The position numbers and the translations under genes are program-made. A stretch of 64,000 nt of DNA from positions 124,119 through 188,118 of the IMG/VR virus record IMGVR_UViG_3300032156_000001; one strand, written 5' to 3'. Numbering within the stretch: the first letter of the stretch is position 1; each line of letters begins with the position of its first letter. The notes beneath the pieces are model-generated. The model saw only the letters and a program-made list of their open reading frames with translations, had not been told where the DNA came from and searched no databases. This stretch comes from a virus. Below, one piece after another: positions 18,667 through 38,432 of the stretch.

Positions 18667-18704
18667 GGCTGTGGCATTGGCAAACGGACGGAGAGGACTT
18701 CGCG

Positions 18705-19040
18705 ATGAACCTGGCACAGATGACGCCGGCGCAGCGGGAAGTGGCGGCCAAGCTGTACGTGCCCGCCTTCCTGTCGAAGATGGCGGAGCTCGGCCGGCCG
18801 ATCCAGACCGCCGAGCAGCTGGACGACGCGCTGGAGACCGTGGCGCTGCTGAAGGCCGCGCAGCTCCAGGCACAGGCCGCGCCGGACATGCACAAGACGG
18901 CCAATGCGCGCCTGAAGGCGGCGCTGGGCATGCAGCCCGGCGTCGACGAGCCGCTCCGCAAGATGGCGGAAAGGCTCGTGGCCGAGGATCCGCAGCTGGC
19001 GGCGGCGCTGCTGACGGCGCCCGAAGCGCCGGCGAAGTAG
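18705..19040 (+). CDS. Small helical head-associated hypothetical protein
   Basis: GAGAGGA SD before the ATG at 18705; KMAE, KAAQ and KTAN motifs. Confidence 0.65.
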   Translation: MNLAQMTPAQREVAAKLYVPAFLSKMAELGRPIQTAEQLDDALETVALLKAAQLQAQAAPDMHKTANARLKAALGMQPGVDEPLRKMAERLVAEDPQLAAALLTAPEAPAK

Positions 19041-19623: not shown

Positions 19624-19899
19624 ATGCGCACATTGGTCTTCAACAACCTGTACCGCTCCCAGTTCTTCGGGTACATCCCGCCGCACGGGGCGGCCATTCC
19701 CGGCCGGCGCTCGGTGCTCGTGGACGGCGACCTCCGGTCCGTGCTGGCCAGCGGGCGCGCCAGGTACTCGCGGAAGCGCGAGATCGCGGCGCTGAACCAC
19801 GACCAGGACGCCTGCATCGTCACGCTGAGCGAGGTGCCGGAGCCGAGCTGCTCGTCCAGCTCCAGCTCGATGTCCAGCTCCAGCTCGCCGGCGATGTAG
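19624..19899 (+). CDS. Stand-alone GYxPPHG/DGDLR module with a Ser-rich tail
   Basis: AGGAGG SD; ATG at 19624; homologous to the N-termini of 19939, 21028 and 37509. Confidence 0.7.
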   Translation: MRTLVFNNLYRSQFFGYIPPHGAAIPGRRSVLVDGDLRSVLASGRARYSRKREIAALNHDQDACIVTLSEVPEPSCSSSSSSMSSSSSPAM

Positions 19900-19938
19900 C
19901 CGAAATACGTCGGGGGTTGCGGCCAGGAGGACCTACCG

Positions 19939-21009
19939 GTGCGAACGTTGATAGAGAACCCCGGCCACAGGCGGCTGTTCGGCTACGTGCCGCCACACGG
20001 CGTTTTCCTTGCGAGGCACGGGCACGTCGTCATAGACGGGGACCTGCGGACGGTGTTGGCCGGCGGCAAGCGCTATTCGCGCGGCCGCGAGTTGGCCGCG
20101 CTGCGCGGCGATGAGGAAGCCGGGCAGGTCCGGTTGGACAAGGAACCGGATCCCAGCACGTCGTCTTCGTCTTCGCCGTCCTTCAGCCCGCGCGACCTGC
20201 CGGGGATAGTGGCATGGTACGACGCCCTGCAGCTGACCAGGGGCCGTGGGTCGCCGCCATCGGAATCCTCGAGCTCCAGCCCCAGCTCGTCCGAGAGCTC
20301 CGGCTCCAGCGAAGAGCCGGTCTACGTACCTGTTTGGCCTGAGTTGATCCACGGGCGCGACGCCGAAGCCCCGATGGATCTTTCGCATCAGCCGATCTAC
20401 GTGCCGGACGGGATCAATGGGCAGCCCGTCATCGCGTTCTCGAACGACCGCTGGTTCACGGTGCCGTACGCGGCCGCGCTGAATCCCGCCGCGCTCAGTC
20501 TGTTCGCCGTGGTGAAGAAGACGCGGGGCGGCGACACGTGGGACGTCTGGTACAGCGAGAACAGCGGCGGCTATGACCTGTTCATCGACTATCCAAGGGC
20601 GATAAAGGCGAGGCAGCTGAAGCGTGGCCGCGTGAGGCACCGCGACAGGAAGCCGCCGACGGAGAGGCTCCCGTCTGCGCCGTCCGTTTGCGCCCAAGTG
20701 CGCGTGGGCGACGAATGGATAGAAATGTCATACGAAACGATCGAGACCGACCCGACCGTCATCGGCATGACCATCGACGCCGTCAATCCCATGGTGATCA
20801 TCTGGGCGAAGTACCACGGATTGTCCTTCCTGCTCGACGCGCCGTACACGCCCAACGACAGCGACGACGTGTGGATCGGCGGATACGGCAACTCCGGCGA
20901 CCCGGGCTTGTACATCGGCGAGATCGTCCTCACGGAAGGCGTCATGGCGCCCGCCGACCGCGCCAACCTGCACGAATACTTCAAGGCGAAGTGGGGGCTG
21001 GTCTGGTAA
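19939..21009 (+). CDS. GYxPPHG module fused to a LamG/concanavalin-A-like domain
   Basis: AGGAGG SD and GTG start; FSPRDLPGIVAWYDA...GINGQPVIAF...IGEIVL...LHEYFKAKWG pattern; two Ser tracts. Confidence 0.65.
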   Translation: MRTLIENPGHRRLFGYVPPHGVFLARHGHVVIDGDLRTVLAGGKRYSRGRELAALRGDEEAGQVRLDKEPDPSTSSSSSPSFSPRDLPGIVAWYDALQLTRGRGSPPSESSSSSPSSSESSGSSEEPVYVPVWPELIHGRDAEAPMDLSHQPIYVPDGINGQPVIAFSNDRWFTVPYAAALNPAALSLFAVVKKTRGGDTWDVWYSENSGGYDLFIDYPRAIKARQLKRGRVRHRDRKPPTERLPSAPSVCAQVRVGDEWIEMSYETIETDPTVIGMTIDAVNPMVIIWAKYHGLSFLLDAPYTPNDSDDVWIGGYGNSGDPGLYIGEIVLTEGVMAPADRANLHEYFKAKWGLVW

Positions 21010-21027
21010 GACGACCCGGGAGACTGC

Positions 21028-22035
21028 GTGAAAACCCAGTTCGCCAATCTTACCGGTCACAGCAGGTTCTTCGGTTACGTGGGGCCGCACGGCGGCACTG
21101 TGCCGCGCCGCAGGCGCAGGGAGCTTGACGGCGACCTGCGAACGGTGCTGGCCGGCGGCATGGGCAAGCGCTTCTCCAGGCAGCGTGAAATGGCCGCCAT
21201 GACCGCCGCGGACGACGCCGGCCAGATCGGGCTGGTCGAGACGACCGATTACAGGTTCAGCCCGCGACACCTGACGGGGATAAGGGCGTGGTTCGACGCG
21301 ACGCAGATGGGTCCCGTCAGTCCCGGCACGATCTACAGGTGGCCCGATCTGATAGCCAACAACGACGCCGTCGCCTTCGAGAGGGATCTGGCGCCGGCTT
21401 ACGAACCGGCCGGGATCAACGGGTTGCCGGTCGTGGCGTTCGCGGGGGACGAGGGCCTCGTCATACCGTACTCAGCGTTCACGGATCCCGGCGTCTTGAG
21501 CCTGTTCATAGTAGTGAAGATCGAGGATCTCAACGACGCCTGGGCTTTGTGGTACAGCGAGGGCTTCGACGGCGGGTACTACTTGCAGATCAACAACCCC
21601 AGGAGCATGAAGGGCCGCGCGCCGGAACGGGGGCCGCGCAGCAGGCAAACGGAAGACAACCTGGGGCCAAGGCCGAGAGGAGCCGGCGGCTGCGTCAAGA
21701 CCCAACTCTTCGTCGGTTCCACCTGGGTCGGGAACTCCAACTGGGGCGTCACGGCGCCGCCGGTGAACCTGGTCGCGCTGACGATAGGCCCCGTCGACGG
21801 CGGCAGGACGCCGTGGTCCCTCAAGGTCAACAACGAAACCGTGTCGGGCACGCCCAGCGGCGCGTACGTGTCGGCGGGCGCCGGCGGCGACATCTGGCTG
21901 GCTGGCTGGGGCTCTCCGGCCGATCCGCTGCACAAGCTGAGGATCGGCGAGATGGTGCTCGTAGGCGGCATCCTTAGCGACGACGATCTCGCCGCGCTCC
22001 GCGCGTATTTCAGCGCGAAATGGGGCACCGTCTGA
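21028..22035 (+). CDS. GYxPPHG module fused to a LamG/concanavalin-A-like domain (paralog)
   Basis: FSPRHLTGIRAWFDA...GINGLPVVAF...IGEMVL...LRAYFSAKWG, colinear with 19939. Confidence 0.65.
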   Translation: MKTQFANLTGHSRFFGYVGPHGGTVPRRRRRELDGDLRTVLAGGMGKRFSRQREMAAMTAADDAGQIGLVETTDYRFSPRHLTGIRAWFDATQMGPVSPGTIYRWPDLIANNDAVAFERDLAPAYEPAGINGLPVVAFAGDEGLVIPYSAFTDPGVLSLFIVVKIEDLNDAWALWYSEGFDGGYYLQINNPRSMKGRAPERGPRSRQTEDNLGPRPRGAGGCVKTQLFVGSTWVGNSNWGVTAPPVNLVALTIGPVDGGRTPWSLKVNNETVSGTPSGAYVSAGAGGDIWLAGWGSPADPLHKLRIGEMVLVGGILSDDDLAALRAYFSAKWGTV

Positions 22036-22047
22036 CGAAAGGCAAGC

Positions 22048-22383
22048 GTGAGAACGCGGCTTACTAATCTCGCCAGGCAAGCCACTGCTTCGCCTCTGGG
22101 AACCGCGCCGCTGGTAGTCGGGTTCACTTTCGGCGCTCCCTCCATGTCGGCCTGGCTGAACTATGTTCCTGCCTCGGACGCCGCAGAGTCGTACTCGCAG
22201 GGGTCGGACCACGACACCGTCATTTGCGGCGACGGATATGCGGCCTTGACGGAGCGATTCCGCATCAGCGAGATCGTATTCGTCGGCAATGTGCTTGACG
22301 CTTCCGATCGCACCAAGCTGCTGAATTATCTGTGCGACAAGTGGGCCCTTGATACTTCCAGTAGTTCTAGCCCGTCCGCCTGA
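22048..22383 (+). pseudogene. Internally deleted or eroded third copy of the LamG-like gene
   Basis: Keeps an MRTRLTNL-type start and the C-terminal ISEIVFVGNVL...LLNYLCDKW; lacks the core; atypical codon usage. Confidence 0.5.
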
Positions 22384-22450
22384 AAGCAGCCTTCGGTTGC
22401 GCCGGCGTGCGCCGTGTCGTATCGTATACTGGGACGCGGAGGAAGCGCCG

Positions 22451-23362
22451 ATGCCGTTAGCCAACGACTGCCTTGACCACATCAGCTCCTGTGCCAACAG
22501 GCTGTGGTCGCTGACCGTCGGCCAGCAGACCAACGACGAGTTCCCGATCATGCTCAAGGACCCGCTGACTGGCGACGCGGTGGACCTGACGAAGTACGAC
22601 ATCCCGCCCGAATCGTCGTCCTCCTCGTCCTCGTCTTCTTCATCCTCCGGGGCGGCAGGCAAGCACGGCGTGGAGATCACCGTCTGCGGCAACGTGAAGT
22701 TCCGCCTGCCGCCGTTCTACCACCAGAAGATGGCCGTCGTGCACGGCCGCGAGGAGGCGGAACAGGGGAAGGTCTGGCTGGAGGTGGACGGCAATTTCTC
22801 CGACTACGCCGGGATCTGGTACGCCCAGGCGACCGTCTACCAGCGCGGCGTCAGCCGCAAGCTGCTGCCGTTCTACTACGAGGTGATGACGAACATCGCG
22901 GTGCGGCCGCCGCCCAACCAGCCGAACGACCCGGTCACGTCGGTGGAGATCAGGACCAAGATGCGCGACATGTGCCCGGAGATGAACTTCCTGATCGACA
23001 GGCAGGAGATCGCCCAGGAAGAGATCATGTGGGCGATCCTGCACAACGTCGAGATATGGAACGAGGCGCTGCCCCCGGTGGCGCAGTACATGAACGCGCT
23101 GATCTTCCCGTTCAAGGGCCAGCTGTCGGAGGGCGTCGTGGGCGAGCTGATGATGCTCGTGGCGCGGTGGATGCGGCGCAACGACCTCGACTACGCGGCG
23201 GCGGGGCTGGAAGTGGGCGACACGAAGAAGTGGCCGGCGTACATGCAGATCGGCGGCCAGATGCACGCCGACTGGAAGAAGTTCATCACCGAGAAGAAGA
23301 AGCAGATCAACCTCGAGGGGGCCTACGGCCGCATAGGCGGCTGGCCGAGCTGGTGGTTCTAG
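22451..23362 (+). CDS. Neck/head-tail adaptor-like protein with an N-terminal extra domain and poly-Ser
   Basis: GGAGG SD; C-terminal helical region RRNDLDYAAAG...EKKKQINLEGAYG; first gene of the neck block. Confidence 0.55.
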   Translation: MPLANDCLDHISSCANRLWSLTVGQQTNDEFPIMLKDPLTGDAVDLTKYDIPPESSSSSSSSSSSSGAAGKHGVEITVCGNVKFRLPPFYHQKMAVVHGREEAEQGKVWLEVDGNFSDYAGIWYAQATVYQRGVSRKLLPFYYEVMTNIAVRPPPNQPNDPVTSVEIRTKMRDMCPEMNFLIDRQEIAQEEIMWAILHNVEIWNEALPPVAQYMNALIFPFKGQLSEGVVGELMMLVARWMRRNDLDYAAAGLEVGDTKKWPAYMQIGGQMHADWKKFITEKKKQINLEGAYGRIGGWPSWWF

Positions 23363-23370
23363 GAGGACGG

Positions 23371-23664
23371 ATGGAACCGCTGGAATTCCTGGTGGGCCAG
23401 GCGACGAAGCGGGCCGCGATGGTGCTGCAACGGTCGCTGACGCCGGCAGGCGTGACCGGCTGGCGCCCACCGCCGAAGCCGATCGCGCCGCCGTCGTTCC
23501 TGGGCGGGCAGCTGCGACGGACGCGGTTCGGGCCGGCCGCGATGGCGGGCCTGGGCCTGGGCGGGCTGGGCATCGCGCTGCCGACGATCCTGCAGGGGAT
23601 CAGGGGCTTCAAGGACATGCTTGAGGGCCGGCGGTCGCTGGACCAGGCGTCGGCGGGCCGCTGA
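23371..23664 (+). CDS. Small glycine-zipper protein
   Basis: AGGAGG SD and ATG at 23371; AAMAGLGLGGLGIALP hydrophobic segment; KRAA motif. Confidence 0.6.
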   Translation: MEPLEFLVGQATKRAAMVLQRSLTPAGVTGWRPPPKPIAPPSFLGGQLRRTRFGPAAMAGLGLGGLGIALPTILQGIRGFKDMLEGRRSLDQASAGR

Positions 23665-23666
23665 GT

Positions 23667-23684
23667 TTTCCAAGGCCTTGGAAA
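23667..23684. promoter_or_regulatory. 18-bp palindrome TTTCCAAGGCCTTGGAAA, copy 2 (intergenic)
   Basis: Begins 3 nt after a stop codon and ends 12 nt before the ATG of 23697. Confidence 0.65.
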
Positions 23685-23696
23685 CTGGAGCTTCGG

Positions 23697-24701
23697 ATGG
23701 CAAACCCGGCGATGCTTCCCGCCACGACGCCGAGCGCCATCTTCGACCCCAGGGACGCCCGGAAGCTGGACTGCACGTGCTTCAAGCGCGTGCAGATCCT
23801 GGCGCAGCCGCTGGGAGGCCATCTGGCCGCCTGGGAGCTCCAGACCGGCTTCCGCGGCAAGGGCGCGTTCCACTTCTACGTCGACTTCGGCAGGCCGGGC
23901 ACCAACGAATGGGAGTGCCTGAACACGGTCCCCATCGTGGACAGCTGCCTGTTCATGGACCCGCTTCAGCGTCACTGGGACCACCTGGCCGATTGGTACT
24001 ACAGGGTCAGGCTGGCGCTGCCGGAGGACGTCGACCCGGCGACGGGCCAATGCAGGCTGTACGCCTCGCAGCCGCAGCAGGCCAACGGCATCCTGAACAA
24101 GAAGGACTGGCTGCTGGCCAGGGAGATCTGCCGGAAGGAGTACCTGTACCAGCGCAAGCGCGTGAACATGACGGCGGTGGGCTGGCTGCTCAAGCGGAAG
24201 CGGTGGGGGACGGGCTGCCCGCAGTGCCTCGACTACGACAGCGGCGAGGTCAAGAGCGTCGACTGCCCGGTCTGCTACGGGACCGGCTTCGTGGGCGGGT
24301 ACTTCCCGGCGGTGGACTTCATCTTCACGCTCGTGAACGCGCCGTGGCCGCGGGAGTTCAAGTGGGACGAAACGGTCTCGCGCAAGAACGACATCGCGAG
24401 GCAGGGGCGGGCCGTGGCGTACCCGTACCTCGACACCAACGACGTCTACGTCCGCCAGGACACCGGCGAGCGCTTCTTCGTGAACCAGATACAGACCGCC
24501 GCCGAGGTGGGCGGCGTCCCCGTCGTGGTGCTGGCGGAGCTGCGGCTGGCGCCCGTGACGCATGTCATCTACAAGATACCGCTGGCGGCGCCGAGCTCGT
24601 CCAGCTCGTCGAAGAGCGGCCCGAGCTCCAGCCCCAGTTCCAGCAGCGTCCCGCCGTGCGACTGGCGGGTCGGCCTGAACGGCGACGAGGAGAACTGGTA
24701 G
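23697..24701 (+). CDS. Head-closure/neck protein with a CxxC...CxxC zinc finger
   Basis: RWGTGCPQC...DCPVCYGTGFVGGYF; beta-barrel-like C-terminus; Ser-rich tail; lies between adaptor and terminator. Confidence 0.55.
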   Translation: MANPAMLPATTPSAIFDPRDARKLDCTCFKRVQILAQPLGGHLAAWELQTGFRGKGAFHFYVDFGRPGTNEWECLNTVPIVDSCLFMDPLQRHWDHLADWYYRVRLALPEDVDPATGQCRLYASQPQQANGILNKKDWLLAREICRKEYLYQRKRVNMTAVGWLLKRKRWGTGCPQCLDYDSGEVKSVDCPVCYGTGFVGGYFPAVDFIFTLVNAPWPREFKWDETVSRKNDIARQGRAVAYPYLDTNDVYVRQDTGERFFVNQIQTAAEVGGVPVVVLAELRLAPVTHVIYKIPLAAPSSSSSSKSGPSSSPSSSSVPPCDWRVGLNGDEENW

Positions 24702-24810
24702 ATGGACATGAAACCGCCAGCCGGGTATAAGGAACGGAGTCCCGTGCCGGCCAAGCTGGTAGGCAGGCTCAACATGCGGACTTGGGAGCCCGATTTCGAG
24801 GACGTGGTGC

Positions 24811-25524
24811 ATGGCATTGCCCCCCGTCGACAACAGAACGACGGCCGTCGGCCTGGAGCCGGCCAGCAGCCTTTGCAGCACCGGCCCGTTCGCTAACGTC
24901 CTCACGGGGGCGTTCCTGCGGACCCTCCAGGAGCACTTCTCCGACGCGAGCAATCTCGCCTACAACGGCGAGAACATGGATCTTGTCTCCTCGCGCGGGC
25001 AGGAGACGCCGGGCAGGCAGCTTCAGGAGTACATCTGGAAGCCCGACAACACGGAGACGAAGATCCAGATCCAGCCGGTCTGGAAGTACAACACCGAGGA
25101 CGTCCAGCGCAGGCCCGCGTTCTACGTGAAGCGCAACAAATGGCAGGTCGCCCCGCAGGAGGCGATCGACTACGGCATGACCACCAGCGCCGCGAAGACC
25201 GGGGCGATCGTGCAGGGGCAGTTCCAGACCCACGCCATGATAGGCAGCCATTCCATCTTCGCCGTCGGACAAAGCGGGGCGGAGGTTGAGCTTCTGGCCT
25301 CCGAGGCGTATGATCTGTTCATGAGCTTCCGGTCGGCCATACGGGAGGACCTGAAGCTGCACAAGTTCGCCGTCCTGGAAGTGGAGGCGGCGCAGTTGCT
25401 GGACGAGCACGTGGAGGCGTGGGTGGTGCCGGTGGTGCTCGGCTACGCCTTCTACAGGGCTTGGCGCGTGGACAGGGTCGCGCCGTGGTTGAAGGGCGCG
25501 TCCATCGACTTGAGATCGGGATGA
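24811..25524 (+). CDS. Tail terminator/completion-like protein
   Basis: Lies directly before the sheath gene; RRPAFYVKRN motif; alpha/beta pattern. Confidence 0.5.
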   Translation: MALPPVDNRTTAVGLEPASSLCSTGPFANVLTGAFLRTLQEHFSDASNLAYNGENMDLVSSRGQETPGRQLQEYIWKPDNTETKIQIQPVWKYNTEDVQRRPAFYVKRNKWQVAPQEAIDYGMTTSAAKTGAIVQGQFQTHAMIGSHSIFAVGQSGAEVELLASEAYDLFMSFRSAIREDLKLHKFAVLEVEAAQLLDEHVEAWVVPVVLGYAFYRAWRVDRVAPWLKGASIDLRSG

Positions 25525-25537
25525 AGGAGAACGGGCG

Positions 25538-28345
25538 ATGACTTACGTGCTTCCGCAGGTCCTGGTCCATCAGGAGTTCGCCGCCGCCCCCGCCGCGCTG
25601 GTCCAGCCGCTCAACGCGTGCATCATCGGGCCGCAGTACGACCTGCACCGGTACGCCGACGCGGACGAGAAGGCGCTCATCAAGGTGACGGACCAGTACG
25701 ACCCGCTGAGCGACACCTGCTTCCCCTGGCCGGGCAGGCCGGCGGGCGGCGTGGTGGACCCGGACTACACGCGGGTCTTCATGGACGACGCCTGGCTGGA
25801 GATGTACCACGAACCGGCCGGCGGCCCCGGCGGGCCCGTCCTGGCCGTCTCCGGGTACAGGAACAGGATCCGCGCGGAGAACATCGTCTTCGCCACGGCG
25901 AACGGATACGCCAGGTCGGCCGGTCTCCTCAGGGACATCCGGGCCGGCGACGGCGTCAAGGTGTTCGCGAACGCCTGCGGCGGCGTGTACGAGCTCAGGA
26001 CCACGGTCCTCGGCCTCGTCGCCGACGTGGTCCCCGCGGTCATCGGAACGGCCGAGGCTGACGACGGCAACCACGACGCCACCATCGTCGGCGTCACGAT
26101 CGCCAACGCCGGCCAGCCAATCTCCGGCACGGTCAACAACGTGCTGCTGTCGGCCGGCGACGCGTCGAGCTACGACGGGATGGCCGACGGTAATCCCGAT
26201 GAGACGTACGACATCGAGGTCCTGGTGGCCGGCGGCGAGAACGAGGCCGTCTTCCGCGTCACCTCCGCTTCCGGCAACGACGACGACGCCTCCGTGGCGT
26301 TCAACGTGGCGTTCGGCGCCCCGATCGCCGTCGGCGCCCGCGGCTTGACCTGCACCTTCATCACGCGCGGGCCGGACGAGTTCGTCGTCGGCCAGGTGTT
26401 CAGGATCCAGGCGCGGCAGAACTTCACCCCGGCGACGTACGCGTCGGGCGGCACGTACACCGGCGAGTACGACACCACCTATATCGTCAGGGTGTCGCTC
26501 GGCGGCGCCTTCACTGACCCGGTCCAGCCGCAGATCACCGTGACGACCACGACGGGCGTGGACGTGTCCGGCCCGACGACCGTGACGGCCAGCGGCCTGG
26601 CGGTGCCGGTGGGCAACTACGGCGCGACCATCGCGTTCACGGGGCTGGCGCTGTGCAAGGGCGACCAGTACACGATCGTCGTGACGGCGGTCGCCGACGG
26701 CCCGGTCAAGACGCTCGTGCTGGCCAACAACCTGCCCGACGAGCTGCGGGGGATATGCGGGACCCGCGGCATCAGGGGGCCGTCCTCCTCGTCTTCATCC
26801 TCGAGCAGCTCCAGCAGCTCGGGCGCGCCGCCCGACCTGGACCTGACGCTGTACATGATCAAGGACATCGAGGTCCCGCAGGCCAAGTCGCCCGGCGCGC
26901 AGAACTGGACGCAGAGCGCGACCGAGATCTGCCTCAAGGCCGGCATCCAGGGCTACGACGCGGAGTGGGTCAGCGGCGGCGTCATGCAGGCCATGGACGT
27001 GGAGTACGGCGTGGTCTACGTGCAGCACCGCGACCAGCTGCCGACATGGTGCGCCACGGTGGGCACGGTGTCGGACGTGTCCGAGGTCCCGGCCGCCCTG
27101 GGCACCGTGGATCCCGACAACCCCCTGGCGTTCGGCGTGTACAAGGCGCTCGAGAACGCCGCCGGCGAGGACGTGAAGTACGTCGCCATCTGCGGCGACC
27201 CGGCGGACGTGAACAGCTGGCTGCCGGCGCTGGAGCTGCTGGTGGGCCGCGACGACGTGTACGGCCTGGTGCCGCTGACCCAGCAGAAGGACATCATGGA
27301 TGCGGTCCTGGCGCACTGCCTGGCCGAGTCCACCCCGGAGGCGGGCCGCTGGCGGATCTGCTGGCTGAACATGCTGGCCGAGCAGCCGAAGCCCGTCTAC
27401 GCGTACGAGTACGGCACGGCCGACCCGCTCCTGGCCACGATCACCGACGACCCGGACACCTCGGGCACCCAGTACACGCTGGTCGACATAGACGGCGGCA
27501 AGCTGGTGACGAAGGGCGTCCGGGCCGGCGACATCCTGCGGGCCGGGTACACCAGCGACGGGTTCGGCAACATCGTCTACGCGGAGTACGTCATCGACGC
27601 GATCCTCAGCGAGGAGTCGTGCCGGCTCGTGTCCGGCCCGGCCGTCGCCGTCACCGTCCCCAGCAAGATAGAGATCTGGCGCACGCTGAGCTCGACGGAG
27701 CTGTCCGCCGAGTTGGCGGCCTACCCCGGCCTGTTCGGCAGCCGGCGCGCCTACCTGGTCTGGCCGGACGAGTGCGGGAACTCGGGCGACCGGTTCCCCG
27801 GCTACTTCCTCTGCGCGGCGCTGGCCGGCCTGCGGTCGGGCGTGCTGCCGCACCAGGGGCTCACGAACGTCGAGCTCATCGGCTTCGACGACATGACGGG
27901 CTCGATCGGCGACCTGACCGCGGTGCAGATGAGCGTGATGGCTGCGACGGGCTACTGGATCGTCGTCAAGGACCCGAACTCCGGCGCGATCTACACGCGC
28001 CATCAGCTCAGCTGCGGCGACCAGAGCGACGTGAACCAGAAGGAGCAGAACATCACGACCAACCTGGACGACATCTCCTACCTAGCGCTCGACAGGTTCT
28101 CGCCGTTCATCGGCCGCGGCAACGTGACGCCGACGATGATAGACATCGTCCGCGGCGAGTTCATCGCGCTGATGGAGCAGCTGACCAACACGATCGTGAG
28201 CAACCAGCTGGGGCCGCAGATCGTCAGCTACACGATCAAGGAGCTGCGGCAGGACCCGACGTACAAGGACAGGATCGTGGCGCGCGCGGAGCTGGTGCTG
28301 CCGGCCCCGTTTAACGTCCTCGATCTATTTTTGATCGTGAGCTAG
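25538..28345 (+). CDS. Contractile tail sheath protein with insertion domains and poly-Ser
   Basis: 935 aa; AAGGAG SD; C-terminal sheath pattern AGLRSGVLPHQGLTN...HQLS...DDISY...DRIVARAELVLPAPFNVLDLFL; followed by a tube-sized gene. Confidence 0.85.
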   Translation: MTYVLPQVLVHQEFAAAPAALVQPLNACIIGPQYDLHRYADADEKALIKVTDQYDPLSDTCFPWPGRPAGGVVDPDYTRVFMDDAWLEMYHEPAGGPGGPVLAVSGYRNRIRAENIVFATANGYARSAGLLRDIRAGDGVKVFANACGGVYELRTTVLGLVADVVPAVIGTAEADDGNHDATIVGVTIANAGQPISGTVNNVLLSAGDASSYDGMADGNPDETYDIEVLVAGGENEAVFRVTSASGNDDDASVAFNVAFGAPIAVGARGLTCTFITRGPDEFVVGQVFRIQARQNFTPATYASGGTYTGEYDTTYIVRVSLGGAFTDPVQPQITVTTTTGVDVSGPTTVTASGLAVPVGNYGATIAFTGLALCKGDQYTIVVTAVADGPVKTLVLANNLPDELRGICGTRGIRGPSSSSSSSSSSSSSGAPPDLDLTLYMIKDIEVPQAKSPGAQNWTQSATEICLKAGIQGYDAEWVSGGVMQAMDVEYGVVYVQHRDQLPTWCATVGTVSDVSEVPAALGTVDPDNPLAFGVYKALENAAGEDVKYVAICGDPADVNSWLPALELLVGRDDVYGLVPLTQQKDIMDAVLAHCLAESTPEAGRWRICWLNMLAEQPKPVYAYEYGTADPLLATITDDPDTSGTQYTLVDIDGGKLVTKGVRAGDILRAGYTSDGFGNIVYAEYVIDAILSEESCRLVSGPAVAVTVPSKIEIWRTLSSTELSAELAAYPGLFGSRRAYLVWPDECGNSGDRFPGYFLCAALAGLRSGVLPHQGLTNVELIGFDDMTGSIGDLTAVQMSVMAATGYWIVVKDPNSGAIYTRHQLSCGDQSDVNQKEQNITTNLDDISYLALDRFSPFIGRGNVTPTMIDIVRGEFIALMEQLTNTIVSNQLGPQIVSYTIKELRQDPTYKDRIVARAELVLPAPFNVLDLFLIVS

Positions 28346-28347
28346 GA

Positions 28348-28367
28348 CAAGGAGTTATGACTCCTTG
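28348..28367 (+). other. Intergenic stem-loop between sheath and tube genes
   Basis: CAAGGAGT-TATG-ACTCCTTG, 8-bp perfect stem. Confidence 0.5.
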
Positions 28368-28406
28368 ACTAGTTGAGAACGGAAACAGAAACAGGGAGGA
28401 CGACAC

Positions 28407-28856
28407 ATGGCCCGAGACATCTACAACCGCGAGGTGCAGCTGGGCACCCCGATCGCGGCCGACGCGGTCCGCATGCTGATCCCTGCCATCGGCAACGAGG
28501 ATTTCCTCATTCAGAGAGCGCAGATCCAATATAATCAAAACATTTCCCGGTTCTGGGAGGTGGGCTCCCCGAACGTGTACTTCTTCGCGGGGCGCACGCT
28601 CGGCGCGGCGCAGTTCGACCGCGTCGTCGGCGGGAAGGGCATCTCCGGCCAGTTCGTCAAGCAGTTCGGCGACGTGTGCAACATCGCGGGGAACCACCTC
28701 ACGCTGAACATGATGGCCGGCTGCGCCCCGCCGGAGGACAAGGGCAAGCTCCAGGTGTCCGGCGCGGTAATCAACTCGCTGGCCTACAGCATCGCCGCGG
28801 AGGAGATGGTGATCCACGAGACGGTCGGCATGATGTTCGCCCGCCTCAACATCTAG
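28407..28856 (+). CDS. Tail tube protein
   Basis: 149 aa, beta-rich, directly after the sheath; GGAGG SD; RFWEVGS..VYFFAGR motif. Confidence 0.75.
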   Translation: MARDIYNREVQLGTPIAADAVRMLIPAIGNEDFLIQRAQIQYNQNISRFWEVGSPNVYFFAGRTLGAAQFDRVVGGKGISGQFVKQFGDVCNIAGNHLTLNMMAGCAPPEDKGKLQVSGAVINSLAYSIAAEEMVIHETVGMMFARLNI

Positions 28857-28914
28857 CCGCGGTGCCGCGACGGGCCGGGCAGCGCCCGGCCGGCGAGGGT
28901 AGCAGGAGCAGGCC

Positions 28915-31524: not shown

Positions 31525-31548
31525 AAACAGTAACAGGGAGGATCAACG

Positions 31549-32178
31549 ATGGCACAGGGATTCACGCAGCCGGCGGCGGCGCCGCCGAAGATCGGGCCGA
31601 CTTTGGCGCCCGCGCAGGTCGATCCTGAGAAGAGGCGGGAGATCGAGGAGCTCGACGCGGTGGCGAAGGAGCTGAAGCAGCCCATCGAGGGCATCGGCGA
31701 CGCGCCCTCGCTGCCGCCGCAGGGGGGAACGGCGTATTCGGAGGAGGACAAGAAGTCCTTCGTGCGCGCCATCCTGGGCAGCCAGCCGTTCGCGAAGCCG
31801 TACACCCTGTTCGGCGGCATCAGGGTGACGTTCGTGGACGCGCCGGCGGAGGCGTACGGGATGCTGCCGACCGTCATTAAAGCCGACATGACCGCCGGGC
31901 TCGCGCCGAAGCTGGGGCAGGACGACGACGCGAACGAACTGGTCGCGCGCTACCTGGCGGCGCTGACCGTGCGCGACATCCTCGGCCCCAACGCCAAGCC
32001 GATCAAGGCGTTCAAGGAGCCCGACCTGACGAAGCTGAACGAGCGCGTCAAGGAGCTGCTGGAGCTGCCGCGCCCGCTGTTCCTGGCCGTCGTGAACGCG
32101 GCGATGGACTTCGACTCGCTCATAAACGGACTGGTCGAGCGGGCGGCCGTCGCAAATTTCTGGCAGACCGGTGGGTAG
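31549..32178 (+). CDS. Tail assembly chaperone (gpG-like)
   Basis: GGAGG SD; lies after tube/spike; ends just past an in-frame A AAT TTC slippery heptamer. Confidence 0.6.
   Translation: MAQGFTQPAAAPPKIGPTLAPAQVDPEKRREIEELDAVAKELKQPIEGIGDAPSLPPQGGTAYSEEDKKSFVRAILGSQPFAKPYTLFGGIRVTFVDAPAEAYGMLPTVIKADMTAGLAPKLGQDDDANELVARYLAALTVRDILGPNAKPIKAFKEPDLTKLNERVKELLELPRPLFLAVVNAAMDFDSLINGLVERAAVANFWQTGG
32154..32160 (+). other. Programmed -1 ribosomal frameshift heptamer A AAT TTC
   Basis: X XXY YYZ pattern in the correct phase, 5 sense codons before the TAG of 31549..32178; the -1 frame is open to 32684. Confidence 0.75.
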
Positions 32179-32684
32179 GCCTGGCGGTCGAGGCGGCCGC
32201 CAACGGCCGGCTTGATTTCTCCGCCGCCCGCCGGGACGATTGGGGTTGGGAGCTGAAGGAAGCGCTGGTCCTCGAGCGCGTAGACGCGGAGATATCGGCG
32301 CGCCTGGCCGAGGCGACGCACAGGTGGTACTGCGCGGCCGCGCAGCTGACGGGCTGGGATCCCGGCGAGGCGCAGTACGACCAGTACGCCGAACGCGCGG
32401 GGCAGACCTATCTCCGCCTGGGCCGCATCCTGGCCCCGTGGCGGGGCTGGCTCGGCAAGCGCGGCGGCCTGGCGGAACAGTGGCGTCTGTTCAAGGAGGC
32501 CGAGAAGGACCCGAAATATGCGGCCTGGCTGCGCGAGGAGCGCGCGCGGCTGCGGGAACTGGCCGCCGAGGCGGAAGCGAACAGGAAGAGCGAGGCGGAG
32601 TTCGTGAAGCGGCGGGCGGAGTGGCTGCTGAAGCGGGCTGAGCGAGACCGGGATAGGAGACGGCGGCATGGCGTCGGGTCCTGA
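32154..32684 (+). CDS. Frameshift extension (gpT part of a gpGT-like chaperone); not in the ORF track
   Basis: Manual translation of the -1 frame: KFLADRWVGLAVEAAANGRLDFS...AAWLREERARLRELAAEAE...RHGVGS*, 176 codons with GC3 bias and no evident own SD/start. Confidence 0.75.
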   Translation, partial: KFLADRWVGLAVEAAANGRLDFSAARRDDWGWELKEALVLERVDAEISARLAEATHRWYCAAAQLTGWDPGEAQYDQYAERAGQTYLRLGRILAPWRGWLGKRGGLAEQWRLFKEAEKDPKYAAWLREERARLRELAAEAEANRKSEAEFVKRRAEWLLKRAERDRDRRRRHGVGS

Positions 32685-33861
32685 CGTGCTGCGGAACAGG
32701 AAGGCGGCGCTGCAGCGCCAGGCGGCGGATGAGCCGGAAAGCCGCGTGGCCACGGCGCGCGCGCGCACGGTGCATCACAACCCCTTCGAGCAGATGCGCC
32801 AGATGACCCACGAGCTGGGCAGCTCCATAGACATCATGCGGAAGCTGCTCGGCAAGGACTGGGCCGGCGGCAAGCCGTCCCCGCCCCTGCACAGTGACAA
32901 ATCGACAGACCGTGTCATAACGACAAGACTGGGCCGTGGGCGCGTCGCGGCGGGCGTAACGCCCCAAGGGTTGGAGTCTCCTTACAGCGGCCTCGCCCGA
33001 GGCCGCCAGGGCCGCCAGGACGGGCTGATGAGGGACCGGCCTACCAGAGAGGCCTTCGCCACTTTGCTCGCGCCAGAGGCCTCAGAATCGAGTTCCGGCG
33101 TAGAGCGGCTGGTGACCGTGAGAGGCGCCGTACCGCACACGGAACTGCGTAAGGAGCCCGTTCCTGCACAACGAGCAGAACTGCCGACGGCCGCACGGGT
33201 GCAGCAGGTCATGAACGCCGACCTTCTGGCAAGGGGCACCTCGCCCACAGCGGCTAAGCTGGCCGGGCTGGTGAAGGAAGGCAAGCGGGAAGCGGTGGCT
33301 TCGATGCCGGCCAGCCAGACAGTTGCCAGGATCAAGGCGGAGCTGGGGCCGACGGCCGACAGGGCCTTGAAAGCGCCCAATGTGCAGCGCCTGGCCGCCG
33401 CGCGCGACTCACACCGTGACGCCATCCAGAGCCTGCTGACCGGGGCGGCGCGGAGCGGCAGGCTGAGGCTCGACGGCATGCCGTCTCCAGGGCCCGGTCG
33501 CCAGCCGGGGCCGGGCATTGAAACCGCCCTTGAACAACCCGGCGCGGAGGCCACGTCGGCGCTGCGCGGCAACGACGAGACGCACCTGGAAACGGCCAAG
33601 GCCGAACTGATGGAAAGGAGCGCGCCGTCGGGCCGGGCGTCGCTCAGGGAGCACACGGTGGCGACGGCGCGGGCGCAGCCGAAGGAAACGCCTGTGGAGG
33701 CGCCGGAGACGGAGCTGGCGCCCAACCGCGTCACGGCGTCGGCGGCCGCGCTGGCTAAACCGGAGCAGCGCAGGCGGGACGACGGGCCGGGTAAGATGAC
33801 CATAACGATTCGCAATCAGAACGGCCGGCAGCTGCTGACCGGCGACGCGGAGATGAGCTGA
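32668..33861 (+). CDS. Short tape-measure-like protein (by position)
   Basis: Directly follows the G/GT pair; TAGGAG SD; Ala/Arg-rich and helical with a terminal beta segment (GKMTITIRNQNG). Confidence 0.4.
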   Translation: MASGPDVLRNRKAALQRQAADEPESRVATARARTVHHNPFEQMRQMTHELGSSIDIMRKLLGKDWAGGKPSPPLHSDKSTDRVITTRLGRGRVAAGVTPQGLESPYSGLARGRQGRQDGLMRDRPTREAFATLLAPEASESSSGVERLVTVRGAVPHTELRKEPVPAQRAELPTAARVQQVMNADLLARGTSPTAAKLAGLVKEGKREAVASMPASQTVARIKAELGPTADRALKAPNVQRLAAARDSHRDAIQSLLTGAARSGRLRLDGMPSPGPGRQPGPGIETALEQPGAEATSALRGNDETHLETAKAELMERSAPSGRASLREHTVATARAQPKETPVEAPETELAPNRVTASAAALAKPEQRRRDDGPGKMTITIRNQNGRQLLTGDAEMS

Positions 33862-34328
33862 TGGCCGACATCTTCAATTCCGTGCCTGGCGTGATCGCCG
33901 TGCTGGAGGACGAGTTCATCATCCCCGGCCGCGTCCACGTCGAGGGTTTCGAGCCGGAGATGGCGCTCATCTCGGGCATCGACTACTCCCAGTTGACGGA
34001 CCATCAGTTCCAGACGTCGCTGGAGCGCAAAGTTTACATCTACGTGTTCGGCGACGCCATGGGGGAGGTCAGGGTCCACGGCTTGGCGTTCCCGGCGTTG
34101 TGCGACAATATCGGCGGCACGAACGGGCTGATCGAGGTTCTGGACTACTACAAGAACAACCGCGCGTCGGCGCAGCCGACGCCGGTCCAGGTGTTCATCG
34201 GCTCGGACGAGGAGGTCATAACCGGCTACCTGACCGCCGTGCAGATCAGGACGAAGGCGATAGCGGACGATCCTTCGTCCTTCTTCAGCGCGTGGACGAT
34301 GATGATCAACGCACTGCCGAGGACGTGA
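33861..34328 (+). CDS. Tube-like baseplate hub/tube initiator protein
   Basis: 155 aa; QFQTSLERKVYIYVFGD resembles the tube motif; TGATG coupling. Confidence 0.5.
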   Translation: MADIFNSVPGVIAVLEDEFIIPGRVHVEGFEPEMALISGIDYSQLTDHQFQTSLERKVYIYVFGDAMGEVRVHGLAFPALCDNIGGTNGLIEVLDYYKNNRASAQPTPVQVFIGSDEEVITGYLTAVQIRTKAIADDPSSFFSAWTMMINALPRT

Positions 34329-34329
34329 C

Positions 34330-35127
34330 ATGATAAACCACGGCCGGACGCTCCTTCTCAACCGTGACGGTGCCACCAGGCCGCCGCTAACGTTCTTCCT
34401 GGAGGAATACGTGCCGGCGGACTTCGGCGCGGTGGCGCTTCCGGGCGGGCTGGCGCTGGTGCACGGCCGGCTCATGCCGCCCGGCGCCGACGACGCTTTC
34501 GCCAACCTGATGATGCGCCTTTACATGCAGCTGCTCCATTCCAACGAGCTGGCGGACGACCTCCTGGCCCTGGACCCGAGGATCACCTACGACCTGAAGC
34601 GCACCGTCGTGGCGACCCGATCGCAGACGGCGTTCTGCCCGCTGACCGCCTCGGCGCGGCCGTACGAGCTGGACTTCGTCGGCGGCGTGGAGGCGTCGCT
34701 GCAGGCGCCGCAGCTGCGGACCGAGTGGATCCTGACGGCGGTCGGCGCGGACCGGGTGAAGGCGGTCCGCGTGTCCACCGGCGAGACCGCCTATACCGAC
34801 GTGACGATAACGGACGGCGAGACCAGCCCGATAGACCTGCCCGGCCAGCGCAACTACAAGGCCCGCGTCGGCGGGCTGCCGGGCGCGCTGCCGGTCGGCG
34901 CCGAGTGGTCTGCGCAGACGTTCGTCATCCCGCATATCGACGCCAGCGGCGTGCTGACGCGGCTGGACACGATGGGCAACGAGGCCCTCATCGACCTGTT
35001 CCCCAACCGTGAGCCGTACATCACTTACAAGAAGCTGTGGACCGACCACGTCTACGCCGAGTACAGGCTCGGCGGCGTCCTGCTCGCCTTCGTCTACCGC
35101 GCGGAGGAGGAGCGAACCGGTGGGTGA
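34330..35127 (+). CDS. Baseplate-region hypothetical protein
   Basis: Codon bias and position within the operon. Confidence 0.6.
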   Translation: MINHGRTLLLNRDGATRPPLTFFLEEYVPADFGAVALPGGLALVHGRLMPPGADDAFANLMMRLYMQLLHSNELADDLLALDPRITYDLKRTVVATRSQTAFCPLTASARPYELDFVGGVEASLQAPQLRTEWILTAVGADRVKAVRVSTGETAYTDVTITDGETSPIDLPGQRNYKARVGGLPGALPVGAEWSAQTFVIPHIDASGVLTRLDTMGNEALIDLFPNREPYITYKKLWTDHVYAEYRLGGVLLAFVYRAEEERTGG

Positions 35128-36763
35128 CCCGGTCCAGGCCTTCTACACGCGGGTCCGCGCGCGGGCTTATGTCGGCGGCGAGAAGATCCCAATCACCGGG
35201 TTCCAGGCATCGTACGTGCTGAACTCGGTGCCGGAGGTGACCGTCACCGTGCCGATCGGTAGGACCGGCGACGACTTCTCCGTGTCGGAGGCGGAGAACC
35301 TGGTTTCCGGGCTGTCGCCGTACACCACGCTCCGTGTCGAGCTGGAGGCGACGCCGGACCCGAACACCGGTTCCGCGCCGAGCGGCAAGGATCCCGGGTT
35401 TCCCAGCGGCGTCGTTGACGTGTTCGACGGCTTCATCTCCGAGGCGTCGTACACGCGCGACAGGGTAGCAAAGTCGGTCTCCGTCACGCTGCGCGGCTTC
35501 GGCAAGCTGGGCGCGCTGGGCGGCGCCACGCGCTTCGTGGACGGCCTGATGATAGGCGGCCAGCACAACGGCGAGGAGGTCCTCAACTCGAACATAGCGA
35601 AGCAGAGCATCGGCTTCGTGATATTCAAAACGCTGATGGCCAAGATGGAGTCCATACCGGAGGCCGTCTGGGAGAACGGGCTCAAGCCGCTGTTCAGCGA
35701 AATCATCGAGAAGGCCGCCGACGTCTTCTCGTCGTCCTTCGGGTTCAGGACGGGCGGCGGCGCCAGCTTCGCCAGGCAGGCGCTGGAGATGATCGACGCG
35801 GGCAACAACCGCTTCGACACCGACATGACCCTGCGGGCCGAGTACAACAGCCTGCCGGGCATAGAGAAGAGCATGGTCAGGCAGATGGCGCAGCACTTCT
35901 ACGGCTGGGTGTCGCGCGGCTACGGCGGCGATTCCAGCCTGCTGTCCTTCCTGTTCGAGGCGGCGCGCGCGTACCAGTTCGTGATAGTGCCGTGCGTGAA
36001 GGATGCAGCCACGGTGCCGCTCTTCTTCAACCTCGACGCCGAGCCGCCGGCCAGCCAAGTCATAGACCCGGACGAATACTGGACCGTCGAGTCGGAACCG
36101 GCGCCCGGCGGCCGGTCGCTGTTCTCGCCGGATTTCTGGGCCTTCGTCACGACGGTGGTGCTGACGTCTCCGTTCGACTTCAGCGAGGAGCGGATAGACA
36201 GCCCGATCGTCTGCAGGCCGGTGGGCGTCGGCACCGTGAACGGCAGGGGCCCGCTGATGGGCTACACCGGCCGGCTGATAGCCGAGCCGGCGCCGGCGTG
36301 GGTGCTGCCGTACTCGCCGGCGCCGGGGGGCACGGTCCTGCCGGGCATACCGGAAATGGGCGCGCTGAAACAGGGCATTCCGCCCGTGGATTCCCCTGGG
36401 GATGCCCTGAAGAGATTCTGGCGGTCGGGCCTTGGCGATGCCGTGGCGGACACGATGCTGCACTCCATCCTGTTCGAGCGGCGCGTGCGGCAGGTGACCG
36501 GCAGGCTGCGCCTGGACCTGGCCCCGGGCAGCCTCGTGAAGCTGAACACGGCGGGCGAGCTGTTCACCGGGATCACGAACACTTTCTACGGCATCGTCGG
36601 CGCCGTCAGCATCTCCGTCGTGGAGCACGGCGACCACGGCGTGGCGAACACCACACTCCTCCTGACGCACCTTCGTACGGAGGACGAGCACAAGGAACTG
36701 ACAATGCCGAGCCATCCGCTATATACTGGCGAATGGCTGGGCGGGAAGCTGATAGACTACTGA
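35120..36763 (+). CDS. Baseplate hub protein (gp27/gpD-like)
   Basis: GTG at 35120 after GGAGGAG; N-terminal beta barrel; C-terminal VTGRLRLDLAPGSLVKL motif typical of hub proteins. Confidence 0.55.
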   Translation: MGDPVQAFYTRVRARAYVGGEKIPITGFQASYVLNSVPEVTVTVPIGRTGDDFSVSEAENLVSGLSPYTTLRVELEATPDPNTGSAPSGKDPGFPSGVVDVFDGFISEASYTRDRVAKSVSVTLRGFGKLGALGGATRFVDGLMIGGQHNGEEVLNSNIAKQSIGFVIFKTLMAKMESIPEAVWENGLKPLFSEIIEKAADVFSSSFGFRTGGGASFARQALEMIDAGNNRFDTDMTLRAEYNSLPGIEKSMVRQMAQHFYGWVSRGYGGDSSLLSFLFEAARAYQFVIVPCVKDAATVPLFFNLDAEPPASQVIDPDEYWTVESEPAPGGRSLFSPDFWAFVTTVVLTSPFDFSEERIDSPIVCRPVGVGTVNGRGPLMGYTGRLIAEPAPAWVLPYSPAPGGTVLPGIPEMGALKQGIPPVDSPGDALKRFWRSGLGDAVADTMLHSILFERRVRQVTGRLRLDLAPGSLVKLNTAGELFTGITNTFYGIVGAVSISVVEHGDHGVANTTLLLTHLRTEDEHKELTMPSHPLYTGEWLGGKLIDY

Positions 36764-36764
36764 A

Positions 36765-36786
36765 GGTTTCCAAGGCCTTGGAAACC
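36765..36786. promoter_or_regulatory. Palindrome copy 3, extended to 22 bp (GGTTTCCAAGGCCTTGGAAACC), upstream of the sigma gene
   Basis: Intergenic; begins 2 nt after a stop codon; the 18-bp core ends 13 nt before ATG 36798. Confidence 0.65.
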
Positions 36787-36797
36787 CGGGGGACGCG

Positions 36798-37499
36798 ATG
36801 GAGCAGGCTTACGAGAAGTGGCGGAAGGCCCCGACGCAGGAGAACATGGCCGCGCTGCTGGACGCGGCCGACCCCGTCGTCGATTCGGCGCTGTCCGCGT
36901 ACGCGCGCGGGGACAAGGCGCTCAAGTCGCGCGCCAGGATCCTCGCCGCCGGCGCGTTCAAGACCTACGACCCGCAGAAGGGCACCAAGCTGCGGACCCA
37001 CGTCATGACGCAGCTGCAGCCCCTGTCGCGGGCGCACAGGGAGCGGACGGCGGTCGTCAGGACGCCGGAGCGGGTGGCTGCCGACTCGTACCGGCTGAGC
37101 CAGGCGCAGCAGGAGTTCGCGGACAGGCACGGCCGGGAGCCCAGCACCGCCGAGCTGGCCGACGCCTCCAACCTGTCGCTGAAGCGGATAGCGCACGTGC
37201 GCGGCTTCAAGGGCCCGCTGGCCGAGTCGTCGCTGACCGAGATGGAGGAGGACTCGCCGGCCACGTTCTACCCCGGCGTCCACAAGGAGGACCCGAGGAA
37301 GATCTGGCAGGAGTACGTCTACCACGACCTGGACCCGATCAACCAACAGATCCTGGAACGGAAGGCGGGCATGCATGGCAAGCCGGCGCTGTCGAACAAC
37401 GAGATCGCGGCCAAGCTGGGCGTGACGCCAGGCGCAGTGTCGCAGCGCAGCGCGGCCATAGCGGCCAAGCTGGCACAGGGCGAGGGCGTGGAGCTATAG
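36798..37499 (+). CDS. Sigma70-family (FliA/SigB-like) RNA polymerase sigma factor
   Basis: Region 2 YDPQKGTKLRTH..VVRTP; region 3 GREPSTAELADASNLSLKRI; region 4 HTH LSNNEIAAKLGVTPGAVSQ. No region 1. Confidence 0.82.
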   Translation: MEQAYEKWRKAPTQENMAALLDAADPVVDSALSAYARGDKALKSRARILAAGAFKTYDPQKGTKLRTHVMTQLQPLSRAHRERTAVVRTPERVAADSYRLSQAQQEFADRHGREPSTAELADASNLSLKRIAHVRGFKGPLAESSLTEMEEDSPATFYPGVHKEDPRKIWQEYVYHDLDPINQQILERKAGMHGKPALSNNEIAAKLGVTPGAVSQRSAAIAAKLAQGEGVEL

Positions 37500-37508
37500 G
37501 AGTCGCGG

Positions 37509-38432
37509 ATGAAGACCAAGATCCAGAACGCCACCCACGGCGCGTTGAACCTCGGGTTCGTCCCGCCGCACGGCGTCAGGCTGCCGCGCGGCGGCTCGCG
37601 CACGTTCGACGGCGGCCTGCGGACCGTCCTGGCTTCCGGCCTGAAACGGTATTCGCGGCAGAGGGAGCTGCGCGTCATGACCGAGGTCGAGGAGACGGGC
37701 ACCGTCGTGCTGACGGTCTGGCGCGGGAGCGAGGACCCGATCCTGATCCGGGACGGCTATTTCGTGATCGACGGCGGCCGGCTCGGCGGCCCCGCGTACG
37801 AATGGGACGACATCGAGGCGGCGGGCCTTCACGTGCCGGGATTCGACGACGACGAGGATTACGACGACGATACGTCGGACCTCATCGCCATGCCGTTCCC
37901 CTTCGACTTCTTCGGCTGGTCCTGCAGCGGGTTCAGGGTGTGCAGCAACGGGTTCATAGAGTTCGACAACGACGACGACGATTGCTGCAGCCAGTACCAG
38001 CTGCCTGACGTGTACTGCCCGCTGAACATGGCCGCGGCCTTCTTCGCCGACCTGTACCTGCGCGCCAACGTGTCCAAGGTGCGGTACAAAGTGCTCGGCA
38101 CGGCGCCGAACCGGAGGCTCGTCGTCACCTTTTTCAACGTGATCGGCTACTTCAAGACCGCCGACGACTTCACCTTCCAGATCACCGTGTACGAGGGCCC
38201 CTCCGGCGCCGTCCGCTGCCAGTACAAGAGGATGGCGCTCGGCCCCGTCGAAAGCCGCATCGATACCGGCCTGGTCATCGGGCTGAACAGCCAGACCGGG
38301 CTAGAGGGCATAACTTATCAGTTCATAAGCGAAGACGACGTGCAAAAGCTGGCCGATCTCGGATTGGACGAGGTGGTGGTCGGGTTCAGGAAGGTCGACC
38401 AGGTGTCGCCGTGGCCCAGGAAGGAGGGATGA
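37509..38432 (+). CDS. GYxPPHG module fused to an acidic nidogen(NIDO)-like extracellular domain
   Basis: N-terminus LGFVPPHG...DGGLRTVLASG.KRYSRQRE; C-terminus PFPFDFFG...VCSNGFIEF...AAFFADL...GTAPNRRLVV...FTFQITVYE. Confidence 0.6.
   Translation: MKTKIQNATHGALNLGFVPPHGVRLPRGGSRTFDGGLRTVLASGLKRYSRQRELRVMTEVEETGTVVLTVWRGSEDPILIRDGYFVIDGGRLGGPAYEWDDIEAAGLHVPGFDDDEDYDDDTSDLIAMPFPFDFFGWSCSGFRVCSNGFIEFDNDDDDCCSQYQLPDVYCPLNMAAAFFADLYLRANVSKVRYKVLGTAPNRRLVVTFFNVIGYFKTADDFTFQITVYEGPSGAVRCQYKRMALGPVESRIDTGLVIGLNSQTGLEGITYQFISEDDVQKLADLGLDEVVVGFRKVDQVSPWPRKEG

Follow-up and report, generated by a model that had tools for sequence, protein, structure and literature searches.

A 70-residue module shared by four proteins of an uncultured phage defines a capsid-gene-linked family and a candidate virion anchor

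The window analysed here is the final 64 kb (64,000 nucleotides) of a 188,118-bp virus record in IMG/VR (IMGVR_UViG_3300032156_000001), which is linear, about 90% complete and 67% G+C. Within it, an N-terminal module of about 70 residues begins four open reading frames (ORFs), named here by their first nucleotide: 19624, 19939 and 21028 lie side by side, and 37509 sits apart, between a sigma-factor gene and baseplate wedge genes (Table 1). An earlier note on this DNA, made from its letters alone, had proposed that one and the same module starts all four and that it stands alone with a Ser tail at 19624; translation bears out both proposals, and a stop codon follows the tail. The aligned copies have 21 invariant columns and are 38-52% identical to the 19624 copy, while in BLASTP comparisons the N-termini of the fused proteins match each other at E 2.5e-13 and 4.8e-13. 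A GGAG-type ribosome-binding site precedes each copy, and the G+C content of third codon positions (GC3) is 0.86-0.98, typical of coding DNA here, with 19624 at 0.98. GC-rich DNA yields many long spurious ORFs, one of which (19602-20114, 170 aa, overlapping two module genes) we rejected as a spurious frame, and the repeated N-termini might likewise be chance likeness or an artefact of overlapping frames. We consider that prospect practically negligible, as it is refuted by pairwise E values of ~1e-13, the GC3 values, more than 80 independent homologues and the conserved synteny described below.

The neighbouring ORF 22048 had been read as an eroded fifth copy of the module, which proved wrong. 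Only about 10 N-terminal residues resemble the module (limited to MRTRLTNLARQ), and the remainder is the end of the 19939 cargo, residues 19-101 matching residues 270-354 of the 19939 protein (BLASTP, 31% identity, E 6e-7). With a GC3 of 0.70, it is, on this alignment, an internal-deletion remnant and probably decaying. A fifth, divergent copy does occur outside the window (G000:C1:98858-99421), where it heads a 187-aa protein and matches the family profile at E 1.1e-8. This copy (L005 1486-2049) reads VAFVPPSG...VDGLLEELL, and the closest relatives have two proteins with related N-termini, an 825-aa repeat fibre (L020) and one of 156 aa (L021).

The earlier note had also reported DNA similarity in the module cores and suggested that it could serve as a recombination substrate for cargo swapping. 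The similarity is present but modest, with 55-65% identity between the four copies and a longest exact run of 13 nt. As exact runs do not exceed 13 nt, the copies are too diverged now for present-day homologous recombination between them to be supported. The similarity is what old conservation at the protein level would give.

To characterize the module as a protein family, a profile of the four N-termini, a step that the earlier note had itself proposed, was searched with an E cut-off of 1e-3 against 1.84 billion cluster representatives. It retrieved 84 proteins, 29 of them at E up to 1e-10; about 82 of the 84 are true members. Matches P0053 and P0065 were rejected as false positives of zinc-finger or low-complexity type, and P0048 (303 aa), half a module joined to part of an S49 peptidase, was set aside as probably a chimeric or frameshifted ORF. 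In P0047 (271 aa), a repeat-domain insertion of ~125 residues splits the module between its PPHG and GDL halves. By size, 32 members have at most 100 aa (18 of these with a terminal poly-Ser run), 30 have 101-140 aa and about 20 are longer fusions, such that roughly three quarters of the family are small stand-alone proteins. It is this small stand-alone form, rather than a fusion, that prevails in the family and that we regard as ancestral, a point that the earlier note had missed.

The module signature is T-x3-N-x-S-G ... F-G-[FY]-x-P-P-H-G ... G-D-L. Over 125 distinct sequences the consensus is t.v.N.sg....fgflppHG..l.........Gdl, and N7, H21, G22 and G35 are invariant in at least 90% of them. 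As the earlier note had held, the module belongs to no named family: scans of Pfam, PHROGs and NCBIfam with 56 or 12 members or window proteins returned no meaningful family, and the module profile found no relative among PDB sequences. This unnamed family, of about 82 clusters at 50% identity, is by these searches real and independent of the genome in which it was noticed.

The family is closely linked to the capsid gene in related phages. Eleven IMG/VR loci were fetched through the module, all from 100-205-kb phage records except for one 8.6-kb fragment, and they share with the window a common gene order: protease, capsid gene, a gene of ~130 aa, module gene, homologues of 22349, 23697 and 24811, and the 935-aa gene. 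Because these first loci had been selected through the module itself, we assembled a control set through the capsid protein alone, comprising 58 loci with 53-67% capsid protein identity, 55 of them with enough downstream DNA. The module gene is present in 52 of the 55, on the same strand, and starts 440-1615 bp past the stop codon of the capsid gene. Most genomes have one module copy, or two in tandem. Syntenic orthologues of 19624 occur in L007-L009, and 19624 is, by these comparisons, the orthologue of the clade's capsid-gene-linked core gene.

In L022 and L027 the module gene is absent and other small genes occupy its slot, while in L025 an insertion follows the capsid gene and no module gene was found within the 6 kb examined. 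The two clear absences fit an accessory part, as expected. The slot in L022, the locus with the closest capsid protein among the capsid-fetched loci, holds a gene for a 157-aa protein (7850-8323). To the eye, this protein has a basic N-terminus and a repeat region of Ig-like appearance, and it might have replaced the module protein without being homologous to it. Between the capsid and module genes, L014 (6241-9201) and L025 (7052-9774) have insertions of ORFs of Cys-rich, zinc-ribbon or HNH-like type, which are probably mobile nuclease genes.

Variable DNA, amounting to 0-9 kb in the relatives, is located between the module gene and the 22349-type gene and not on the capsid side. Its contents in the relatives include GT2 (E 6e-6) and GT1 (E 1e-16) glycosyltransferase genes, a gene for a collagen-repeat protein (E 2.5e-30) and unidentified genes, and in the window the same slot is filled by the two LamG-type paralogues and the 22048 remnant. 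In the relatives of lower GC, L015 (10665-16518) and also L010, L014, L016 and L017, the module gene is directly followed by a stretch with GT2, a collagen-repeat protein with a weak BppL_N match, and GT1, which looks like a variable surface-modification island beside the head genes.

The genes of the region, nearly all of them on the plus strand, form a virion-gene block. Among cultured phages the closest are Arash, a Salmonella phage, and three phages of Vibrio, with capsid protein identities of 28-29%, and the cultured-phage collection contained no DNA match. The 18660 gene, between the capsid and module genes, has counterparts by tblastn in L007-L009, and in L010-L017, L022 and L027 its slot holds similar-looking ORFs of ~113-154 aa; Pfam and PHROG scans with its protein gave no match. 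The 19064 gene, directly upstream of the module gene, is limited to a GC-rich subclade. Just 5' of the capsid gene there are two tandem paralogues, 16416-16928 and 16982-17614 (170 and 210 aa, 66% identity), whose slot holds a single copy in every related locus examined; no family was assigned to them. Long poly-Ser tracts in this genome are linkers or terminal tails and fall almost entirely inside the virion-gene block. Ser or Ser/Pro tracts of 9 to ~70 residues are found in 25538-28345, 22349, 23697, 41341, 43063, 47231, 49712 and 56604; that of the 935-aa presumed sheath protein is internal, near residue ~415, several others are C-terminal tails, and the 49712 protein repeats SSSSSPP ten times.

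Table 1. Positions of the module genes and of neighbouring features in the window.
Position	Strand	Feature	Remarks
4228		RNA polymerase beta-prime subunit, C-terminal half	Context
13050		Prohead-protease-like gene	Context; virion block
17663..18613	+	Major capsid protein gene	phrog_2522, E 1e-5; homologues of 53-72% identity in 69 loci
18660..19040	+	Gene of ~126 aa between capsid gene and module gene	Conserved in the related loci examined
19064..19612	+	Two-part protein, 182 aa, with Ser/Pro linker of 26 residues	Directly upstream of module gene
19624..19899	+	Stand-alone module protein, 91 aa	Module residues 1-71 (19624-19836), then EPSC and poly-Ser tail, stop
19939..21009	+	Module (1-68), two Ser-rich linkers and concanavalin-A/LamG-like cargo (~125-356), 356 aa	
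21028..22035	+	Module (1-72) fused directly to paralogous LamG-like cargo, 335 aa	
22048..22383	+	Internally deleted paralogue	~10 first module residues, last ~85 residues of LamG-like cargo, short Ser tail
22349..23362	+	First conserved gene downstream of the module-gene array	
25538-28345		935-aa gene, putative tail sheath	Labelled from size and position only
36798		Sigma70-family gene	Sigma70_r3 match
37509..38432	+	Dispersed copy: module (1-70), acidic linker and beta-rich, possibly NIDO-like domain, 307 aa	
39340		Baseplate wedge gene	phrog_6

The cargo of the fused copies was described in the earlier note as LamG-like at 19939 and 21028 and as nidogen-like at 37509. The first label agrees with ESM Atlas models, in which the 19939 protein matches Laminin_G_3/ConA-like clusters with TM 0.71-0.76 over ~195 residues (feature score 0.97), and with a weak match of the same protein to phrog_10356, 'virion structural protein' (E 3e-4). 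It finds no echo in Pfam, where the cargo of both proteins had no match at E up to 0.1, and at E up to 10 the whole genome gave no match to PF13385 (Laminin_G_3). The 19939 and 21028 proteins are 37% identical over their full length. Searched against PDB sequences, the cargo profile had no meaningful match, and a full-length search with the 19939 protein returned only itself.

The nidogen-like label has its support in P0015, a 56%-identical orthologue of the 37509 protein, which matches NIDO (PF06119) at E 4.4e-4 and 20.7 bits, below the 25-bit cut-off and over 49 of the 186 profile positions, but the window protein itself has no match in Pfam, PF06119 included. Three pattern scans of viral and metagenome collections, together with five related genomes, revealed no locus encoding 37509 orthologues.

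Across the family, the cargo is varied. In the nearest relatives, three proteins start with an extra copy. One, of 476 aa, has two blocks of collagen repeats (Pfam Collagen, E 4.6e-13), another, of 825 aa, is built of SGSIASGQ[IV]G..HLASG-type repeats, and the third, of 156 aa, has a Gly linker and, at its C-terminus, a small domain. Other fused cargo includes IPT/TIG (E 3e-14), RCC1 (E 2e-11), LamG-like domains and several domains without a match. In four proteins the module stands at the C-terminus, after an Ig-like domain, which shows that it can sit at either end of a protein. The idea of a reusable module with interchangeable adhesion cargo, put forward in the earlier note, thus gains comparative support from varied fusions at either terminus, repeated gain or loss of cargo (see below) and the linkage to the capsid gene.

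From phage to phage the core protein also differs in its tail, which is a ~40-residue extension that ends in DPCW, an acidic tail, 8-10 collagen-like GXY triplets, SASVSD repeats or poly-Ser. Just past the module we noted an [ED]-P-x(0,1)-C motif in both subtypes, as EPSC, CC or PC before the Ser tail and as the DPCW that ends the 40-residue extension (window 19837-19899; P0009, P0017-P0019, P0032 and P0073; L012-L017). GT2 and GT1 genes are next to the module gene solely in the subclade that lacks Ser tails, and Ser-tailed phages have 0-1 GT2 genes, none of them near the module gene; glycosylation of the Ser tails is therefore neither supported nor excluded.

An AlphaFold2 (AF2) model of the module, built with a 56-sequence alignment, has a mean predicted local distance difference test score (pLDDT) of 87.5, with the Ser tail disordered. 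It predicts a compact alpha/beta fold in the order b1-b2-b3-b4-a1-a2-b5, with strands at residues 2-7, 13-15, 23-25, 30-34 and 66-71 and helices at 37-43 and 50-62. The same fold recurs at pLDDT >90 within the model of the 335-aa 21028 fusion, the cargo of which falls below 50 and is not resolved. According to these models, the module is an autonomous folding domain. Fold searches (Foldseek on PDB and BFVD, VIA-align wide, and a second look) yielded nothing above Z 3.8 or Foldseek E 0.02, and an ESM Atlas search with the module was uninformative. Two phage proteins, YqbF (Z 3.4) and lambda gpFI (Z 2.7), were considered and rejected as within noise.

A predicted small domain at the N-terminus of most members, encoded near the prohead protease and capsid genes, invites the question of whether it is a targeting or assembly signal, for prohead loading like the T4 capsid-targeting sequence, or else a small ligand- or metal-binding or regulatory domain that is fused to other domains only incidentally. 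The invariance of N, H and two G residues would suit such a role, and one copy follows a sigma-factor gene. However, the cargo consists of extracellular-type adhesion and fibre modules on Ser linkers, not of enzymes or DNA-binding proteins, the module also occurs C-terminally after Ig-like domains, and most members have no cargo at all. The modelled structure is moreover a folded 70-aa domain and not a short cleavable peptide, and we regard a targeting or regulatory role as very unlikely.

The history of the module was explored with a maximum-likelihood tree of 44 module sequences, which is poorly resolved overall because it is based on only 76 columns. It nevertheless groups 19624, 19939 and 21028 (support 89/89), which points to local duplication of the core gene, and joins 37509 with two others, P0015, which is of NIDO type, and P0010, which is Ser-tailed and has no cargo (support 100/95). 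A second well-supported group likewise mixes fused and stand-alone members, and from such mixed groups it follows that cargo was gained or lost more than once. We take the ancestral form to be a stand-alone protein of 75-140 aa, consisting of the anchor and a short flexible or fibrous tail, whose gene directly follows that of the major capsid protein in a clade of uncultured phages of 100-235 kb. In the present phage this gene was duplicated, one copy remaining small with a poly-Ser tail while two tandem copies gained ConA/LamG-like domains, and one tandem copy was subsequently gutted by deletion to leave 22048. An older paralogue near the baseplate genes carries the possibly NIDO-like domain, and a divergent copy is present elsewhere in the genome.

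We propose that the module is probably a virion anchor for displayed domains, such as accessory fibres and adhesins. This reading is favoured because the module is predicted to be a folded, autonomous domain that tolerates varied cargo at either end, because the cargo is of fibre or adhesin type and is carried on flexible linkers, and because the core gene is nearly always present yet dispensable and travels with the capsid gene. Since all copies have the same conserved anchor residues, a single type of repeated site on the particle would be expected to receive them all, so the virion would display assorted adhesion domains held on flexible, Ser-rich linkers. The docking site is most likely the capsid shell, in view of how the core gene is linked to the capsid gene, how many paralogues share one anchor, and the presence of separate paralogues after the baseplate block (one pair compared). 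Collagen-like tails and fusions suggest that the module may bind as a trimer, which would fit local three-fold positions of the shell.

A different site of attachment has to be weighed against the shell. The core gene has the head genes on one side and, on the other, three conserved genes that come before the presumed sheath gene, and the 37509 copy comes directly before the baseplate wedge genes; the module might therefore anchor its proteins to the neck or collar or to the baseplate, much as the N-terminal domain of T4 fibritin or the shared N-terminal particle binders of tailspikes and of tail fibres of extracellular contractile injection systems do, the small form being a short whisker or a plug for unused sites. 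In the relatives the module heads long collagen-repeat and other repeat fibres, as would be expected of whiskers or tail fibres, and a conserved N-terminal anchor with a variable tip is the rule for tail fibres (PMC12923769). Against this, a distance of 0.4-1.6 kb to the capsid gene is kept, while up to 9 kb of variable DNA separates the module gene from the neck and sheath genes. At least five paralogues with a single anchor would have to compete for 6-12 neck or baseplate sites. The genes 44923 and 45844, which come after the baseplate block, encode proteins that are 34% identical to each other over 91 residues. We consider attachment to the neck or baseplate less likely, though a serious alternative, and capsid-shell anchoring preferable.

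Several observations nevertheless weigh against a capsid-docking virion anchor. Gene position is circumstantial evidence: the core gene lies at the head-neck boundary, with the 37509 copy among baseplate genes and the other copies scattered. No cultured phage has been found to carry the module, and Arash, one of the nearest cultured relatives, gave no match. The LamG and NIDO labels of the cargo are weakly based, and the conserved polar residues N7, H21 and D36 could form a ligand or metal site instead of an interface. Finally, the modelled fold has no informative relative (best Z 3.8), a weak result that is no proof of a new fold. The boldest version of the proposal, in which a capsid-docking tag of new fold works at either terminus, the mini-fibre tails are substrates for modification, and five anchored proteins are mixed on one shell as a tunable glycan and adhesin coat of the head, appears to us improbable.

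Our results define a near-universal, capsid-linked gene family in a large clade of uncultured 100-235-kb phages with their own RNA polymerase, and give it a testable role as a portable particle anchor for exchangeable fibres and adhesins. If this role is true, about 100 'hypothetical' proteins could be annotated, the family would illustrate surface diversification by duplication of an anchor and addition of cargo, and the module could serve phage display as a compact tag of 70 residues.

A first parallel among known systems is T4 Hoc, with which the module family shares a small conserved domain, presumed here to bind the particle, variable displayed domains, paralogues, an occurrence at either terminus and an accessory character, Hoc being non-essential. 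Hoc proteins join variable Ig-like or other domains to a conserved domain that binds the capsid, and some phages have a second paralogue with other cargo; the binder is found at either terminus, and in phage PG7 the cargo is a GDSL lipase (PMC10385173). The two also differ, as the binder of Hoc is normally at the C-terminus and occupies hexamer centres as a monomer, whereas the module is mostly N-terminal, lacks cargo in most members and carries collagen-like tails that hint at trimers. Capsid binding is shown for Hoc, whereas for the module we infer it. No relation in sequence or fold was found between them (Pfam and PDB sequences; fold searches not above Z 3.8).

A second parallel is T5 pb10, which consists of a 76-aa N-terminal capsid binder, a linker and an Ig-like domain, the binder being an all-helical bundle of five helices (PMC5292684). 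Family members P0014 and P0040 (162-163 aa) resemble it in combining the ~70-aa module with a linker and an IPT/TIG Ig-like domain. The N-terminal domain of pb10 is all-helical, whereas five strands and two helices are modelled for the module, and we regard the resemblance as one of analogy.

N-terminal particle anchors also include the head-binding domain of P22-type tailspikes and the N-terminal domain of T4 fibritin. Conserved N-terminal domains are also described for the tail fibres of extracellular contractile injection systems (PMC12923769). Tail-fibre and tailspike anchors resemble the module in having a conserved N-terminal domain, exchangeable tips and several paralogues per genome. 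They attach to the tail or baseplate and their genes stand with tail genes, whereas the core gene of the module family is capsid-linked and its product usually tip-less; no homology to the module was detected. The two-part build of the Hoc and pb10 class, a binding-type domain with variable domains on a linker, is found in the module proteins as well. The principle is already known from Hoc, pb10 and the tail-fibre anchors, and what the module family adds is a new instance of it rather than a new concept.

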